Positions 1,945-62,255 of a DNA stretch of 64,000 bases are shown one piece after another; within the stretch, counting starts at the first letter, position 1; each line of letters begins with the position of its first letter. This stretch comes from Puniceicoccales bacterium (GTDB taxonomy: Bacteria; Verrucomicrobiota; Verrucomicrobiia; Opitutales; LL51): the NCBI GenBank assembly GCA_031284265.1, contig JAITAG010000039.1:2983-66982 (forward strand). Reading direction: 5' to 3'. The notes under the pieces were generated by a model. It did no database searches, was not told the DNA's origin, and saw nothing but the letters and a program-made list of their open reading frames with translations. Made by a program: the position numbers and the translations under genes.

Positions 1945-2496
1945 TTGATGTGTTTTTTATTATCGATGTCCTTGTACAATATGAAGGCCATCACTTATAA
2001 AGTGTTGTTGCTAGTACCATTATCTTGTCTTGTTCTTCTTTTCGTATTTATTGGTGACGTTTGGTATGAACAAAAAATATTTGTAATCGTCGGAAACTTT
2101 TTGCAGATTATTATCCCATGCATGGGCTATTATATCAGTTTGGTCAAAAAAGATAAAGTGGGAATTAAACAATTTTTGTGTACTGCTTCGGCAACCGTAG
2201 GAATAACCTATGCCATAAAATGGATGACCTATTATATGGGTATCGGTATTCGCCCATCCGGGGAAACGAAATCTTTTCCTTCCGGACATACGTCCTGCTC
2301 GTTCCAAGGTGCATTTTTTTTACTCAGACGCTACGGTTGGAAATGGGGAGCTCCAATGCTTATACTCGCTGGCTCAACTGCCTATAGCCGCATCTATGGA
2401 TTGTATCACCACTGGCGCGATGTCATTGCTGGATTCTTTATCGCGCTTCTCGTCAGTAAGTTGTTTGTGACTCCCCTAAGGGCTTCTCGCCCTTAG
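1945..2496 (+). CDS. PAP2-family lipid phosphatase (PgpB/LpxE-like)
   Basis: Multi-TM ORF with PAP2 motifs 'RPSGE', 'PSGHTS' and 'SRIYGLYHHWRDV'. ATG at 1948 is a likely start. The last ~7 codons and the TAG stop lie inside repeat module B. Confidence 0.75.
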   Translation: MMCFLLSMSLYNMKAITYKVLLLVPLSCLVLLFVFIGDVWYEQKIFVIVGNFLQIIIPCMGYYISLVKKDKVGIKQFLCTASATVGITYAIKWMTYYMGIGIRPSGETKSFPSGHTSCSFQGAFFLLRRYGWKWGAPMLILAGSTAYSRIYGLYHHWRDVIAGFFIALLVSKLFVTPLRASRP

Positions 2497-2745
2497 AATC
2501 CCCGCCATGGGATCCATCCCCTGGACCTGGATTACGGACCTTCCACCGGACAATGCCCGGTGGGAGGTCCGCAGGGGGGGCCCGGAGGCCCCCCGCGGCT
2601 TCGCCGCGGGGCGGGCTGATGCCGCGCTGCGGCCCAGCCAGGCGAAAGTTTCGCCTGGCTGGGCCGCAAGACAAGGTCAAGGAGTTTGCGACTCCTTGCG
2701 GAAGTCCAGAGGGCATAGCCCTCTGATTTGCAAATTTCGCATTGC
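2476..2745 (+). repeat. GC-rich hairpin-module mosaic, array 1 (order B-A-F-G-C-D-E)
   Basis: Successive palindromes: CTAAGGGCttctcGCCCTTAG; CCATGGGATCCATCCCCTGG; GGACCTTCCACCGG..CCGGTGGGAGGTCC (2536-2570); CCCCGCGGCttcGCCGCGGGG; GGCCCAGCCAGGCG..CGCCTGGCTGGGCC (2631-2665); CAAGGAGTttgcgACTCCTTG; CAGAGGGCataGCCCTCTG. Confidence 0.9.
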
Positions 2746-2777
2746 TATTGGGAAATAGCATTCATGATTTTGTGCAG

Positions 2778-4052
2778 ATGATTTGGATCTATCGATTACT
2801 ATTTCTGCCGATTTTTATCATATTCTTGTTGAAAAATTTACCAAAAATATTCAAACGAGGAGGTTACGGCATTGATTTACGGCATCGGTTTGGATTTTTT
2901 CCGCGGCTACCGAAGATAGAAAAAAAACGCCTATGGATTCAGGCGGTAAGCATGGGAGAAGTGAATGCAATTGTCCAATTAATTGCATTATTAAGTGAGC
3001 GTTACGAAATCGTACTTACCTCAACGACACCAACGGCACGAAAAATTATCATCGAAAAATTAACGAAAAATGTCCTATTCCATGGTTATTTCCCATGGGA
3101 TTTTTGGTTATTCAGTTGGATAGCGTGGCGACGTATTTGTCCCGATGCAGCTATTCTCGTAGAAAGCGAGCTATGGCCAGAACATATTTGGCAGGCGAAG
3201 CGACGTAAAATTCCCGTTTTTTTGATCAATGCGCGTTTATCGAATTGCTCATTTCGACGTTACCAGAAGTTTCCTCGATTAGCTCATTGGATTTTTGAAA
3301 AAATCGATTTCATTATCGCTTCTTCCGAGCAGAATCTCGAAAGAATCGCCGCGTTTCGTGATAAAGTTATTAAATATTTTGGAAATATAAAATTCGATAT
3401 TCCAATACGATCGTTATCGCAGGAAACGCGAAAAAATCTCAAAAAAGAACTTGGATTTTCTGAAGATTCATTTGTGTTACTAGGATGTTCGACTTGGCCC
3501 GGCGAAGAAGCCATACTATTGAAAGCTTTTCGTAAAATAAAAGCAAGAAAAAGTGAGCATATGTCCAAAGATTATAATCTTTTAATCGTACCGCGTCACG
3601 CCGAACGCCGTAAAGAATTGGTTCACTGGTTACAAAGCGAAAATGTTTCGTTCTGGCAGCGTTCAAAAGGCATTGCGGAAGGTAAATTTGACGTTTGCTT
3701 GGCAGATACAACGGGAGAATTAGCATACTTAGTTCAAGTCGCTGATTTAGCCTATATCGGAAAAAGTTTGGCACCGAATGTTGGCGGTCAAAGTCCGTTG
3801 GATGCGGCGATGGCAGGTGTTCCTGTAATTTACGGCAATCGCATGACGAATTTTTGCGATATTTGTGCCCAGCTAGAACAAGAAAACGCAGCGGTTAGGA
3901 TAGAAAGTGAAAAAGATGTGATCAATACCGTCGCTGAATTGGTAGAAAATATCAAAATTCGGCAAATTTTATCGAAAAATATTAGCAATTGGTTTAAAAA
4001 AAATCAGGGTGCATCGACAAAAATTGCTAACTTTATTCGAAAAATAATATAA
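2778..4052 (+). CDS. waaA: 3-deoxy-D-manno-octulosonic acid (Kdo) transferase
   Basis: 'LWIQAVSMGEVNAI' matches the KdtA 'HAVSVGE' motif and the C-terminal glycosyltransferase region 'GGQSPLDAAMAGVPV'. The ORF opens at TTG 2742 inside the repeat, so ATG 2778 is preferred. Confidence 0.85.
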   Translation: MIWIYRLLFLPIFIIFLLKNLPKIFKRGGYGIDLRHRFGFFPRLPKIEKKRLWIQAVSMGEVNAIVQLIALLSERYEIVLTSTTPTARKIIIEKLTKNVLFHGYFPWDFWLFSWIAWRRICPDAAILVESELWPEHIWQAKRRKIPVFLINARLSNCSFRRYQKFPRLAHWIFEKIDFIIASSEQNLERIAAFRDKVIKYFGNIKFDIPIRSLSQETRKNLKKELGFSEDSFVLLGCSTWPGEEAILLKAFRKIKARKSEHMSKDYNLLIVPRHAERRKELVHWLQSENVSFWQRSKGIAEGKFDVCLADTTGELAYLVQVADLAYIGKSLAPNVGGQSPLDAAMAGVPVIYGNRMTNFCDICAQLEQENAAVRIESEKDVINTVAELVENIKIRQILSKNISNWFKKNQGASTKIANFIRKII

Positions 4053-4061
4053 TCTTGTAGG

Positions 4062-60597: not shown

Positions 60598-61026
60598 CTA
60601 TACTCCAAAAATTGTCAAATTTGATCCCCGAGGTACTTCTCGAACGTAATTAAAAGCGTCTGCCCAAAATGCCAAATTCGCAACAAACGATTCCATCTCT
60701 CCAAATAGGTTGTCGGTAAAGAGTTCCGCTAAGGACCGTTTGCGAAATAAGCAAAGCCGATTACTTTCACTTTCAATGGAAAGTATGTCATCGGTATCCA
60801 TAATTCGTGCAAAATTCCATTGCAAAATATTTTTTAGTTTTGGTAAATCATTTTCCGTAATTTCCCCTGCAAAATAACCCCAAAAAACAAGAAATCGCCC
60901 GTCTAAATAAGCGATTTTTAGCTCCAAATGCTCGTCAATGATAATTTCGCAAACGGAATCTTCTACATTGTGATCTTCCACGCGAAAATACCGCACTAAA
61001 AATTCAATTGCTTCCCCCCATTCCAT
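60598..61026 (-). CDS. putative class I type III secretion chaperone (CesT/SycE-like)
   Basis: 143 aa from 'MEWGEAIEFL'. It is acidic and follows the pattern '..IIIDEHLELKIAYLDGRFLVFWGYFGEI....LPKLKNILQWNF......LSIESESNRLCLF' typical of T3S chaperones. Its stop abuts the secretin start. Confidence 0.45.
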   Translation of the reverse strand: MEWGEAIEFLVRYFRVEDHNVEDSVCEIIIDEHLELKIAYLDGRFLVFWGYFAGEITENDLPKLKNILQWNFARIMDTDDILSIESESNRLCLFRKRSLAELFTDNLFGEMESFVANLAFWADAFNYVREVPRGSNLTIFGV

Positions 61027-61163
61027 CAACGATTCTTTTTTTACTAAAAAAATTCTAATGTGCAAGTGTGAAATTTTATAATCAAAAATTTTAAATATCA
61101 AAATAGTCATTTTTCCACGAAAAATCATTGCGACTTATTGCATAGTTTTAATAGAAATAATTC

Positions 61164-61961
61164 GTGTTTGAAAAAATTAGCAGTAGGCATAATGAGAAAA
61201 TAAAGTTTATTGATAAACTTAAAAAATCGGCTAGTCGAAAAAGACTTGGAATCTTTCTCGTCGAAGGCTTTCGAGAAATTTCCCGCGCTCATTCGCGCCA
61301 ATTTATCACAGAATTACTGTTTTGTGAGGAATACTTTACGAATCACAAAACGTTTCCTTCCTTCATCCAAACGCTCATAGACGATCAAATTCCACTTACA
61401 CAGGTTACTCCAGAGGTTTATCAAAAAATTTCACTTCGAGAAAATGGCGATGGACTAATTGCTCTCGCTCGCTCCCGTAGCGTATCACTGAATGAATGCG
61501 TTCCTCCCGAAAATGGGCTTTTTATTGCCACAGAAAATGTCGAAAAGCCAAGTAATTTTGGCGCAATCGTTCGAACAGCAGAATCAGCAGGTGCCAACGG
61601 CGTTATCGTCCTTAACCATTCCACGGAAATTTTTAATCCCAATGCCATTCGCAACTCTCAGGGTACCGTTTTCTTCGCTGACATTTACGACGCTACAACG
61701 GAAGAATTTTTAAATTTTACACAACAATACCAGTTGTCAATTTATGTTACCTCACCCCAAGCAGAAAAACTATATTTTGAAAAAGATTTCAAAAAAGGTG
61801 CCGCCATTCTCGTCGGATCGGAAGACAAAGGTGTTTCCGATTTTTGGTTTCAACAAAACCATACCATTCGCATCCCCCAAATAGGTAAATCGGATTCTCT
61901 CAACGTCTCCATTGCAACTGCTGTCGTCCTTTACGAATGTGTCCGTCAACGCTCAATGTAG
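61164..61961 (+). CDS. SpoU/TrmH-family RNA 2'-O-methyltransferase
   Basis: 'FLVEGFREI', 'VEKPSNFGAIVRTAESAGANGVIV' and 'SLNVSIATAVVLYE'. Non-ATG (GTG) start. Confidence 0.8.
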   Translation: MFEKISSRHNEKIKFIDKLKKSASRKRLGIFLVEGFREISRAHSRQFITELLFCEEYFTNHKTFPSFIQTLIDDQIPLTQVTPEVYQKISLRENGDGLIALARSRSVSLNECVPPENGLFIATENVEKPSNFGAIVRTAESAGANGVIVLNHSTEIFNPNAIRNSQGTVFFADIYDATTEEFLNFTQQYQLSIYVTSPQAEKLYFEKDFKKGAAILVGSEDKGVSDFWFQQNHTIRIPQIGKSDSLNVSIATAVVLYECVRQRSM

Positions 61962-61976
61962 TTCTTAAAAATTTCT

Positions 61977-62255
61977 CCTACGGACTGTTCGCCCTTAGAA
62001 TCCCGCCAGGGGATGTCTGCCCAGAGGGTTCCGCCCCTCTGGATTCCCGCCAGGGGATCCATCCCCTGGACCTGGGATTTCCGGCCTGAGCCCCGGGCAA
62101 CGCCCAGGGCTCAGGCCGGAATGGCCCGAACAGCTGCGGCCTAGCCAGGCGAAGAATTCTCCTGGCTAGGCCGTAAGAAGAGGTCAAGGAGTCCATGACT
62201 CCTTGCTGGGTATGGGGCAGAGCCCCATGAGTAGCTACCTAAGGTGTATCCTTAG
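61977..62255 (+). repeat. GC-rich hairpin-module mosaic, array 13 (B-[A interrupted by E]-A-H-C-D-K-B')
   Basis: A duplicated TCCCGCCAGGGGAT at 62001-62014 and 62045-62058 flanks an E hairpin. CCGGCCTGAGCCCC..GGGCTCAGGCCGG (62081-62119); GGCCTAGCCAGG..CCTGGCTAGGCC (62138-62172); CAAGGAGTccatgACTCCTTG; ATGGGGCagaGCCCCAT; CTAAGGtgtatCCTTAG contains the gatA stop. Confidence 0.9.

Follow-up and report, generated by a model that had tools for sequence, protein, structure and literature searches.

The 64-kb window analysed here, a stretch of 64,000 nucleotides from contig JAITAG010000039.1 of a Puniceicoccales bacterium (Verrucomicrobiota), carries housekeeping genes (kdtA-like, holB-like, tmk, dnaG, rpoD, pheS/T, tpiA, tgt, hisS, gatA-like and secretin genes) and is an ordinary chromosome segment. 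Scattered among these genes are thirteen GC-rich tracts made of short palindromic modules, which an initial annotation had proposed to be copies, some complete and others truncated or degenerate, of a single composite element. All thirteen tracts are present where they had been placed; they sum to 3,263 nt (~5% of the window) and have a GC content of 0.55-0.66, compared with 0.417 in the remaining window. Repeat finding returned families that connect all of the tracts, together with the long perfect or near-perfect hairpins already named, and 12 copies aligned in one orientation gave a single backbone; together the alignments (A1, A2, A4 and A6) put every copy in one register. These same analyses show that the modules are common to the tracts, keep their order and occur in both orientations. 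Sites matching the core of module A (CCAGGGGATCCATCCCCTGG, at most 3 mismatches) number 12 in the window and 0 in 100 dinucleotide-preserving shuffles, and the module D pattern gives 8 sites, likewise against 0. Since all copies fall in one alignment register and the A and D sites are absent from the shuffles, the copies represent one lineage-specific family of non-coding interspersed repeats, and the proposal of a single composite element is borne out by the alignments.

Two parts of the earlier description required revision. The thirteen tracts are real, but the number of copies is 14, because the tract at 4062-4617 consists of two head-to-tail copies; this gives a density of ~1 copy per 4.6 kb, and nhmmer searches with a 5'-half and a 3'-half profile found zero extra copies in the window outside the thirteen tracts. 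Likewise, the shared hairpins behind the ~10 modules first listed are real, but the letters F/H, G/J and E/K do not stand for alternatives: in each case both letters denote one hairpin position with covarying stems. The non-palindromic spacer said to be shared by arrays 10 and 11 was recovered as AAAGTTGTCCTAGTGGGC in tract 11 and as its reverse complement in tract 10.

A scan of 185,579 species-representative genomes (596 Gb) with a 17-mer of hairpin A returned 105 stretches, 59 of them in six metagenome-assembled genomes (MAGs) labelled 'Puniceicoccales bacterium' (isolates Pcl387_bin18, Cc175_bin33, Gsp477_bin70, Ct408_bin149, Po218_bin25 and Nc350_bin186). The other matches were isolated, mostly one per genome, and fell in unrelated taxa (Streptomyces and others), as expected for chance matches in 596 Gb. 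Copies beyond the window, on which the idea of mobility had been made to depend, are thus many in relatives: nhmmer found more than 100 half-elements within 342 kb of related MAG loci. The versions of the family are species-specific and are found in at least seven related genomes; for genes flanking the elements, the window and the MAGs share 70-83% nucleotide identity. The isolate names resemble those of what we take to be termite-gut metagenome bins, and going by these names the host clade consists of intracellular Puniceicoccales from termite guts. Also encoded in the window (10945-12468, minus strand) is a TLC ATP/ADP translocase of full length, which matches Pfam PF03219 at E = 1.7e-178. 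Such translocases are typical of obligate intracellular bacteria living as energy parasites, and its presence fits an endosymbiotic lifestyle of the Puniceicoccales bacterium.

Searches of other resources agree with the view that the repeat matches no described family. Rfam gave only 7 tRNAs at gathering score over the window and, for 2300-9400, only weak generic hairpin matches far below gathering and none at E <= 1; known RNA families (omega RNA/HEARO, ribozymes, riboswitches) were rejected as candidates since none matched at either level. A phage or plasmid origin was also set aside, with zero matches in viral contigs or plasmids, and identity with the QMITE of Coxiella, which the ~42% GC content had suggested, was dropped because the scanned genomes that carry the repeat are Puniceicoccales MAGs. 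The hairpin A and hairpin D patterns had no match in JGI metagenomes, so that a wider environmental spread is unsupported. [quoted passage not shown] By these searches, which did not extend to Dfam, ISfinder or nt, the family appears to be new.

The repeats also break short-read assemblies of Puniceicoccales MAGs, and many MAG contigs end inside a repeat, as high-copy, near-identical repeats disrupt short-read assembly. Two window proteins have exact matches in short Logan contigs of run SRR14710909, and one of these contigs ends inside copy 6. Long poly-G/poly-C and scrambled GC stretches lie in the middle of inverted or reverse MAG copies (L098 ~6225-6320, L095 ~1960-2050, and L082); errors of assembly at the hairpins, and not biology, are the probable cause.

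A full copy comprises ~220-330 nt and folds into 6-8 independent GC-rich stem-loops in the fixed order B-A-H-(G)-(I)-C-D-E; across species, copy length ranges over 176-449 nt. Module B reads CTAAGGGC-n5-GCCCTTAG, with GCAAGGGGAATCCTTCCCCTTGC as an alternative in some MAG copies, and module A reads CCCCGCCAGGGGAT-CC-ATCCCCTGGACC. Module H is a 15-17-bp stem with the loop GGGC-nnn-GCCC, an all-GC stem (12-13 bp) and a 3-nt loop make up the optional module G, and the optional module I reads TTGGCCGAGGCGAT... Module C (TGCGGCC...GCGAAA-n-TTTCGC...GGCCGCA) has a 20-bp stem, module D reads GGTCAAGGAGTC-n3-GACTCCTTGCGGGG, and module E reads either CCAGAGGGC-n3-GCCCTCTGG or TATGGGGC-n3-GCCCCATA and is at times duplicated along with the preceding TCCTTGCGGG. 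Open reading frames (ORFs) within the copies do not keep their frame, because linker length varies from copy to copy.

In four species, module A can be aligned with the reverse complement of module D, 12 columns being invariant (CC.C.AGG ... CCT.GACC); by this alignment, which further corrects the earlier description, D is an inverted homologue of A. The ends of the element thus resemble ~30-nt terminal inverted repeats (TIRs), each capped by an outer hairpin (B or E). The inverted motif is subterminal: a filled and an empty orthologous locus compared below (L016 and L104) place hairpins B and E outside the motif yet within the insert. The isolate Po218 has a literal inverted A hairpin as its 3' module and an interior of other hairpins, one of them AT-rich, and Nc350 has the short form B-A-G-G-D-E. 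Hairpins of the interior may be lost, doubled or exchanged, and the interior is built of hairpins in every case. Taken with the A-D alignment, these variants indicate that the ends are conserved and the interior is exchangeable.

Table 1. Copies of the repeat in the 64-kb window, with their module order and immediate surroundings.
Copy	Position	Strand	Structure	Surroundings and peculiarities
1	2476..2745	+	Full length, B-A-H-(extra GC hairpin)-G-C-D-E	
2a	4062..4396	-	Full length, extra E; plus-strand reading E-K-D-C-I-G-H-A-B	Begins 10 nt past the stop codon (4052) of the kdtA-like gene
2b	4397..4617	-	K-D-C-H-A-B, without G and I	Head-to-tail with 2a; A hairpin turned into a longer perfect palindrome (4568-4587 region)
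3	7582..7847	+	Full length, B-A-H-G-C-D-E	
4	8907..9272	+	H-G-C-D-K-E, preceded by a degenerate 5' part with a B remnant, an I-like hairpin and a decayed A	Flanked by a pseudopilin-like gene and tRNA-Ser(cga)
5	28729..28873	-	Fragment: E, half of C, G/J, I	
6	30588..30832	-	K-E-D-C-(decayed G/H)-A-B	Occupies the convergent spacer from ORF 29797-30570 to pheS (30828-31868)
7	38757..38940	+	B-A-H-(decayed C)-D', truncated past the left arm of D	
8	41311..41364	-	Fragment: A-B only	
9	42227..42283	-	Fragment: A + B	Divergent junction; A hairpin turned into a perfect extended palindrome (42224-42263)
10	44208..44561	+	Long form B-A-H-spacer-I-G/J-(AT-rich stretch)-D variant-E-K	Occupies the convergent spacer from ydjC-like to tpiA
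11	48311..48602	-	Full length with I: E-D-C-I-spacer-H-A-B	Convergent junction
12	54972..55166	-	Truncated: half of C, decayed G/I, H-A-B	Divergent junction
13	61977..62255	+	Truncated B + half of A, then full B*-A-H-C-D-K, then B-like hairpin	16-nt stretch AATCCCGCCAGGGGAT duplicated about the internal junction (61995-62058)

Stem pairing is maintained through compensatory change. Among 58 aligned 5' halves, 95.3% of cells were paired and 19 of 25 pairs showed double changes; among 53 aligned 3' halves, 95.4% were paired and 17 of 32 pairs showed double changes. Double changes thus occurred in 36/57 pairs, neither half was equalled in 500 shuffles, and sliding the partner column lowered pairing to only 32-50%. 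Between the copies of the window, stem positions differ by 18-28% while 90-96% of pairs hold, and two-sided stem differences are 4-5 times as frequent as one-sided ones, a pattern that would not be expected from neutral decay of dead copies. The stem of hairpin A occurs in versions sorted by species (GGGGAT/ATCCCC, GGAGGC/GCCTCC and GGAAAC/GTTTCC). The D stem is almost invariant in sequence, which suggests sequence-specific recognition. Folded as single-stranded DNA, copy 3 reaches -104 kcal/mol, compared with -52 +/- 4 in shuffles (z = -13).

On the forward strand, G:U and A:C mismatches are nearly equal in number (30 vs 26, and 47 vs 24, with 21 of the G:U in the second count coming from misaligned rows). 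This symmetry marks no single strand as a functional RNA and places the constraint on DNA hairpins or on both transcripts; strand-specific RNA selection was accordingly dropped as a candidate. In some copies (2b and 9 in the window, and the MAG loci L001 and L014) the asymmetric A hairpin has become a longer perfect palindrome, indicating that a process that perfects palindromes, such as repair or template switching inside the hairpins, is at work as well. Such a process may be the source of part of the stem compensation.

Orthologous sites differ between species in the presence or absence of the element, the second kind of observation on which mobility had been made to depend. At the 3' end of the PAP2 gene, the window and Cc175 are filled at an identical junction and Po218 is empty, already reading CCCTAAG there. 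At the kdtA 3' end, Po218 has no copy, Ct408 has two in forward orientation and the window has two in reverse. Four more filled/empty orthologous pairs were found beyond these two genes; the tpiA 3' end, filled in the window by copy 10, is empty in Gsp477 (L012). The only pair with both flanks alignable is Cc175 locus L016 (filled, ~480-1000) and Ct408 locus L104 (empty, ~5500-5890). Here the insert is ~400 nt long and is bracketed by a diverged ~24-nt duplication consisting of the last six gene codons and TAAAAT. In other cases the same site is occupied in more than one species: the copy 4 site in Cc175 (L002) and Gsp477 (L027), the copy 11 site in Cc175 (L089) in the same orientation, and the 3' end of the copy 13 gene's orthologue in Gsp477 (L095 ~1890-2070).

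Copies resemble others in their own genome (identity 0.72-0.93) more than those in other genomes (0.55-0.79), and the Cc175 copy orthologous to window copy 1 bears an H stem of the Cc175 type. That orthologous copies resemble their own-genome paralogues points to gene conversion among copies or to replacement by re-insertion. Head-to-tail arrays are common (L059, with a 257-nt period; L098; L058; and 2a/2b in the window), and inverted pairs are present in L098.

The expected location at gene 3' ends and convergent junctions was confirmed, with 7 of the window's tracts at convergent, 4 at co-directional and 2 at divergent junctions; both divergent tracts are fragments. When the window and the MAG loci were taken together, 13/50 convergent, 17/175 co-directional and 6/49 divergent junctions were occupied, so that convergent junctions are occupied 2-3 times as often as the others. 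At co-directional junctions, forward copies outnumber reverse copies 13 to 4. Stop codons lie within 0-20 nt of copies, and 6 ORFs end inside one. The PAP2-family gene (1945-2496) runs 20 nt into copy 1, its last residues (...PLRASRP*) being encoded by hairpin B; the holB-like ORF (4456-5445) has ~160 nt inside copy 2b; and the rsmE-like gene (38068-38823) has its terminal 66 nt inside copy 7 (these overlaps refer to the longest ORFs of the three genes). Stop codons and C-terminal tails of genes thus come from the elements, and the ends of these genes will be given wrongly by automated annotation.

Some of the hairpins have features of intrinsic (Rho-independent) terminators. Terminator-like sites in 1-20000 number 34, compared with 24.7 +/- 4.9 in shuffles, and ~9 of them lie within the tracts. 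Read in reverse, the D hairpin is followed by ACCTCATTTT, giving a hairpin and T run in copies 1, 2a, 2b and 4, and T-rich spacers come after the G and I hairpins of copy 2a in the forward reading. Next to most hairpins there is no T run.

With a probability of about 0.6, the family is a non-autonomous mobile and recombining repeat of the MITE, REPIN or BOX kind (REPIN, a doublet of repetitive extragenic palindromic [REP] sequences; BOX, a repeat of Streptococcus pneumoniae) that moves via a folded single strand, with a read-through barrier as a secondary property. This reading draws on the high copy number, the narrow lineage, the lack of coding capacity, the conserved ends and variable interior, the 3'-end location, the turnover, the subfamilies and the disruption of assemblies. 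From these features we infer how the element may spread, what may mobilise it and what it may do for its host. New copies would arise via a folded single-stranded intermediate, most likely DNA, and this intermediate would be recognised in trans, by an enzyme whose gene lies at another place in the genome, as in the pairing of REPINs with REP-associated tyrosine transposases (RAYTs) or of TIR-MITEs with a parent insertion sequence (IS). Gene conversion and slippage among copies would homogenise them and shuffle their modules. Persistence at 3' ends would mainly reflect that insertion is least harmful there; such survival is most simply explained as tolerance, since BOX, RUP, SPRITE and IS elements are likewise enriched at convergent junctions (PMC3049150). 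Copies at 3' ends would be co-transcribed with their genes, and their strong hairpins would probably hinder read-through from either side, which would be a by-product of their presence and might be an exaptation. The great strength of the hairpins, the T runs behind some of them and the orientation bias at co-directional junctions make a read-through barrier plausible.

Several results weigh against a mobile repeat. As had been reported at the outset for transposases and integrases, Pfam/NCBIfam scans of ~60 long ORFs found no such gene in the 64-kb window, nor does the window encode an HUH enzyme. Clustering of ORFs from the window and 59 loci (342 kb) gave no multi-copy family suggestive of a mobilising enzyme, the families found being housekeeping paralogues (pseudopilin-like proteins and ABC ATPases), and a layout of 5' half, ORF and 3' half was not seen in related loci. 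Over 50 tracts, the best match between flanks averaged 6.36, against 6.12 for mismatched flanks, and thus gave no sign of a target-site duplication (TSD). Inspection of 28 copies with defined ends also showed no regular duplication, with 2-4-nt duplications or those of old copies lying below resolution, and no conserved target motif was found at the insertion flanks. The ~24-nt duplication at L016 is atypically long for the target duplication of a transposon and comes from the sole clean filled/empty pair. Every comparison involves species with 70-83% identity to one another, and no recent insertion or excision was seen. Occupation of the same sites in several species and homogeneity within genomes could be explained by gene conversion alone. 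Finally, the forward bias at co-directional junctions hints at an orientation-dependent effect at the transcript level that purely selfish DNA would not predict. The region between inverted copies in L069, considered as the site of a partner gene, holds tRNA genes and ordinary ORFs, and this candidate was rejected.

The forward bias is better accommodated if the elements are host-selected punctuation of an AT-rich, compact endosymbiont genome, serving as bidirectional transcription barriers, as protectors of the 3' ends of mRNA and tRNA transcripts, or as both, with spread being secondary. We consider this unlikely overall, although it stands up better than the other alternatives. Copies fill entire convergent spacers and abut stop codons, convergent occupancy is raised, the same gene ends are occupied across several species in spite of turnover, and terminator-like sites exceed the shuffled number; hairpins acting on both transcripts would also account for the G:U/A:C symmetry. 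However, the shortage of T runs is not what punctuation calls for, and one or two hairpins would do where six to eight are kept in order. In sister species, many orthologous ends lack a copy and show nothing in its place, fragments and copies also lie at divergent, promoter-side junctions, and arrays of at least three tandem copies (L059) have no obvious use. Convergent enrichment, moreover, is also shown by plainly selfish repeats and IS elements (PMC3049150).

Movement of double-stranded DNA was considered as well. A classical TIR-MITE, derived by internal deletion from an IS with a DDE transposase, would have the ends CCCCGCCAGG...CCTGGACC and move by cut-and-paste, its hairpins being incidental or stabilising. 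The A/D inverted pair is conserved across species around a variable interior, and the size (~190-330 nt), the absence of coding capacity and the presence/absence differences between species would all suit such an element; the family is short, non-coding and variably present, as MITEs (about 100-400 bp) are. Correia and RUP elements have TIRs at their termini and fixed TA target duplications. The likeness of the Puniceicoccales repeat to the TIR-MITEs (Correia/NEMIS of Neisseria, RUP, ERIC, and QMITE of Coxiella) extends to inverted ends, intergenic location, co-transcription with neighbours and occurrence in host-restricted bacteria. In TIR-MITEs, however, the TIRs lie at the very termini and duplications are fixed, whereas here the inverted motif is subterminal, with B and E outside it but inside the insert, and no TSD was detected. 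Most TIR-MITEs, unlike this repeat, are not GC-rich relative to their genome. No parent IS with the same ends was found in ~400 kb of sequence, and pervasive compensatory upkeep of interior stems would be unexpected if the ends alone mattered. A classical TIR-MITE is therefore distinctly improbable.

The absence of both a TSD and a transposase would be no obstacle if there were no transposition at all, with a palindromic satellite of single origin being moved and homogenised by ectopic recombination, gene conversion, and slippage or template switching, and with repair inside the hairpins keeping the stems paired. The resemblance of orthologous copies to paralogues in the same genome and the conversion of the asymmetric A hairpin into a perfect palindrome are consistent with such a satellite. 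Slippage would fit the head-to-tail arrays, the duplicated D-E tails and the long, irregular junction duplications (24 nt at L016, 16 nt in copy 13). Sites that are empty in sister species, however, are filled flush with stop codons at unrelated genes and in either orientation, which needs a route to new loci, and species-specific stem variants in many dispersed copies resemble amplification from a master copy. A repeat spread without any transposition is accordingly quite improbable. Independently functioning multi-copy genes for structured non-coding RNAs (such as guide or regulatory RNAs), which the very strong predicted structure and the covariation would suit, are hardly credible in view of the lack of an Rfam match or a strand-specific G:U excess, the occurrence in both orientations relative to neighbours, the common truncated and module-loss variants, the high density in the window and the lack of an associated protein gene in the window and related loci.

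Compared with known systems, the mobile repeat proposed here would work most like the REP, bacterial interspersed mosaic element (BIME) and REPIN sequences, and its architecture appears closest to the modular BOX element. The features shared with REP/BIME and REPIN-RAYT systems are GC-rich extragenic palindromes in high copy, mosaic clusters, location at operon ends and no target duplication. As with REPINs, the hairpins are kept by compensatory changes (PMC3116915), and lineage-specific types persist and diverge with their host; the family is indeed extragenic, of high copy number and composed of compensated hairpins. The differences lie in size and composition. A REP is a single palindrome of 20-40 nt and a REPIN an inverted doublet of ~70-110 nt, whereas here 6-8 distinct hairpins span ~260 nt; REP mosaics consist of one REP in alternating orientation, whereas here distinct modules follow a fixed order and only A and D form an inverted pair. 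According to PMC3733652, a REP palindrome carries a GTAG or CGTC tag at one foot. Neither tag is present at the hairpin feet in the consensus of all hairpins (eight different stems, 7-20 bp). REPIN systems have a single-copy RAYT gene, coding for a Y1 HUH transposase, with the repeats on its flanks; here a RAYT gene was found neither in the 64-kb window nor among the ORF families of the 342 kb.

BOX is likewise a modular composite with fixed end modules (boxA and boxC) and a variable interior; it measures 67-637 bp, has extensive predicted secondary structure, is enriched at convergent junctions and has no known dedicated transposase (PMC3049150). It belongs to another phylum and showed no sequence relation in the searches run, so that the likeness is one of architecture, by description (PMC3049150). 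The BOX interior is a tandem boxB array, whereas the interior here consists of different hairpins that are far GC-richer than their own genome.

Rickettsia palindromic elements (RPEs) are ~100-150 nt long and typically form in-frame insertions inside genes. They resemble the present family as palindromic repeats that proliferate in an obligate intracellular bacterium with an ATP/ADP translocase and can join coding sequence. The Puniceicoccales copies, in contrast, touch only the 3' ends of ORFs (stop codons and short tails), are longer and contain multiple hairpins. GC clusters and hairpin elements of mitochondria (yeast, sponges) are also GC-rich intergenic hairpins in an AT-rich compact genome, and are thought to be mobile without coding capacity (PMC2800124). 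These are short single or double hairpins of organelle genomes, with no conserved multi-hairpin order. On present evidence the family is an unusual variant (multi-hairpin, GC-rich and ordered) of a known kind of element and not a categorically new mechanism.

Provided that this description holds, the few bacterial composite repeats (BIME, BOX) gain a well-defined example from Verrucomicrobiota and from an intracellular symbiont. Its informative traits are the many independent covarying hairpins, the species-specific versions in at least seven genomes and the turnover at orthologous gene ends. It offers a natural system for asking what keeps palindromic repeats folded, whether selection on the element, use by the host or repair, and how selfish repeats persist in shrinking endosymbiont genomes. 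Annotators of this clade need a repeat model, as the elements alter annotated 3' ends (PAP2, rsmE-like and holB-like genes). A bolder combination, which we regard as speculative and rather doubtful, would have the copies be vertically inherited, structured single-strand replicators that are served by a dedicated single-copy enzyme, have co-diverged with the host clade and now act as the host's bidirectional transcription stop. If true, a parasite would have turned into the punctuation of a reduced genome, REPIN-like and an order of magnitude more complex.

Other features of the window were also observed. Cumulative GC skew peaks near 31 kb (~29000-32000) and then declines, which suggests a replication terminus or strand-switch point. 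With respect to this turn, no replication-strand bias of the copies is visible, 3 forward and 4 reverse copies lying on each side, although these numbers are small. Prepilin- or pseudopilin-like paralogues with an N-terminal methylation motif and a weak GspG match stand in tandem (8178-8894, 28942-29739 and 29797-30570). The same family is found in the related loci L002 (4660-7112) and L095 (267-1893), and a repeat element follows the last gene of each cluster. A segment of 122 nt comprising tRNA-Thr(cgt) and its flanks is duplicated at 50903-51024 and 53626-53747, 2.7 kb apart, with 91% identity overall and 99% in the tRNA; the orthologous locus in Ct408 (L008) has a single tRNA-Thr(cgt), beside Thr(tgt)-Lys. 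The ORF at 33587-35689 (VWA/TPR, BatB-like) contains an in-frame tandem repeat at 35167-35466 (unit 54/105 nt, 2.8-5.5 copies, 65-87% matches) that has a strong AT skew (0.49) and encodes a low-complexity Q/D/N-rich stretch. The 430-aa ORF at 12726-14018, which had no Pfam/NCBIfam match, has internal repeats of 145 nt at 12945 and 13257 (74% identity) and a 33-nt tandem repeat at 13865-13964.

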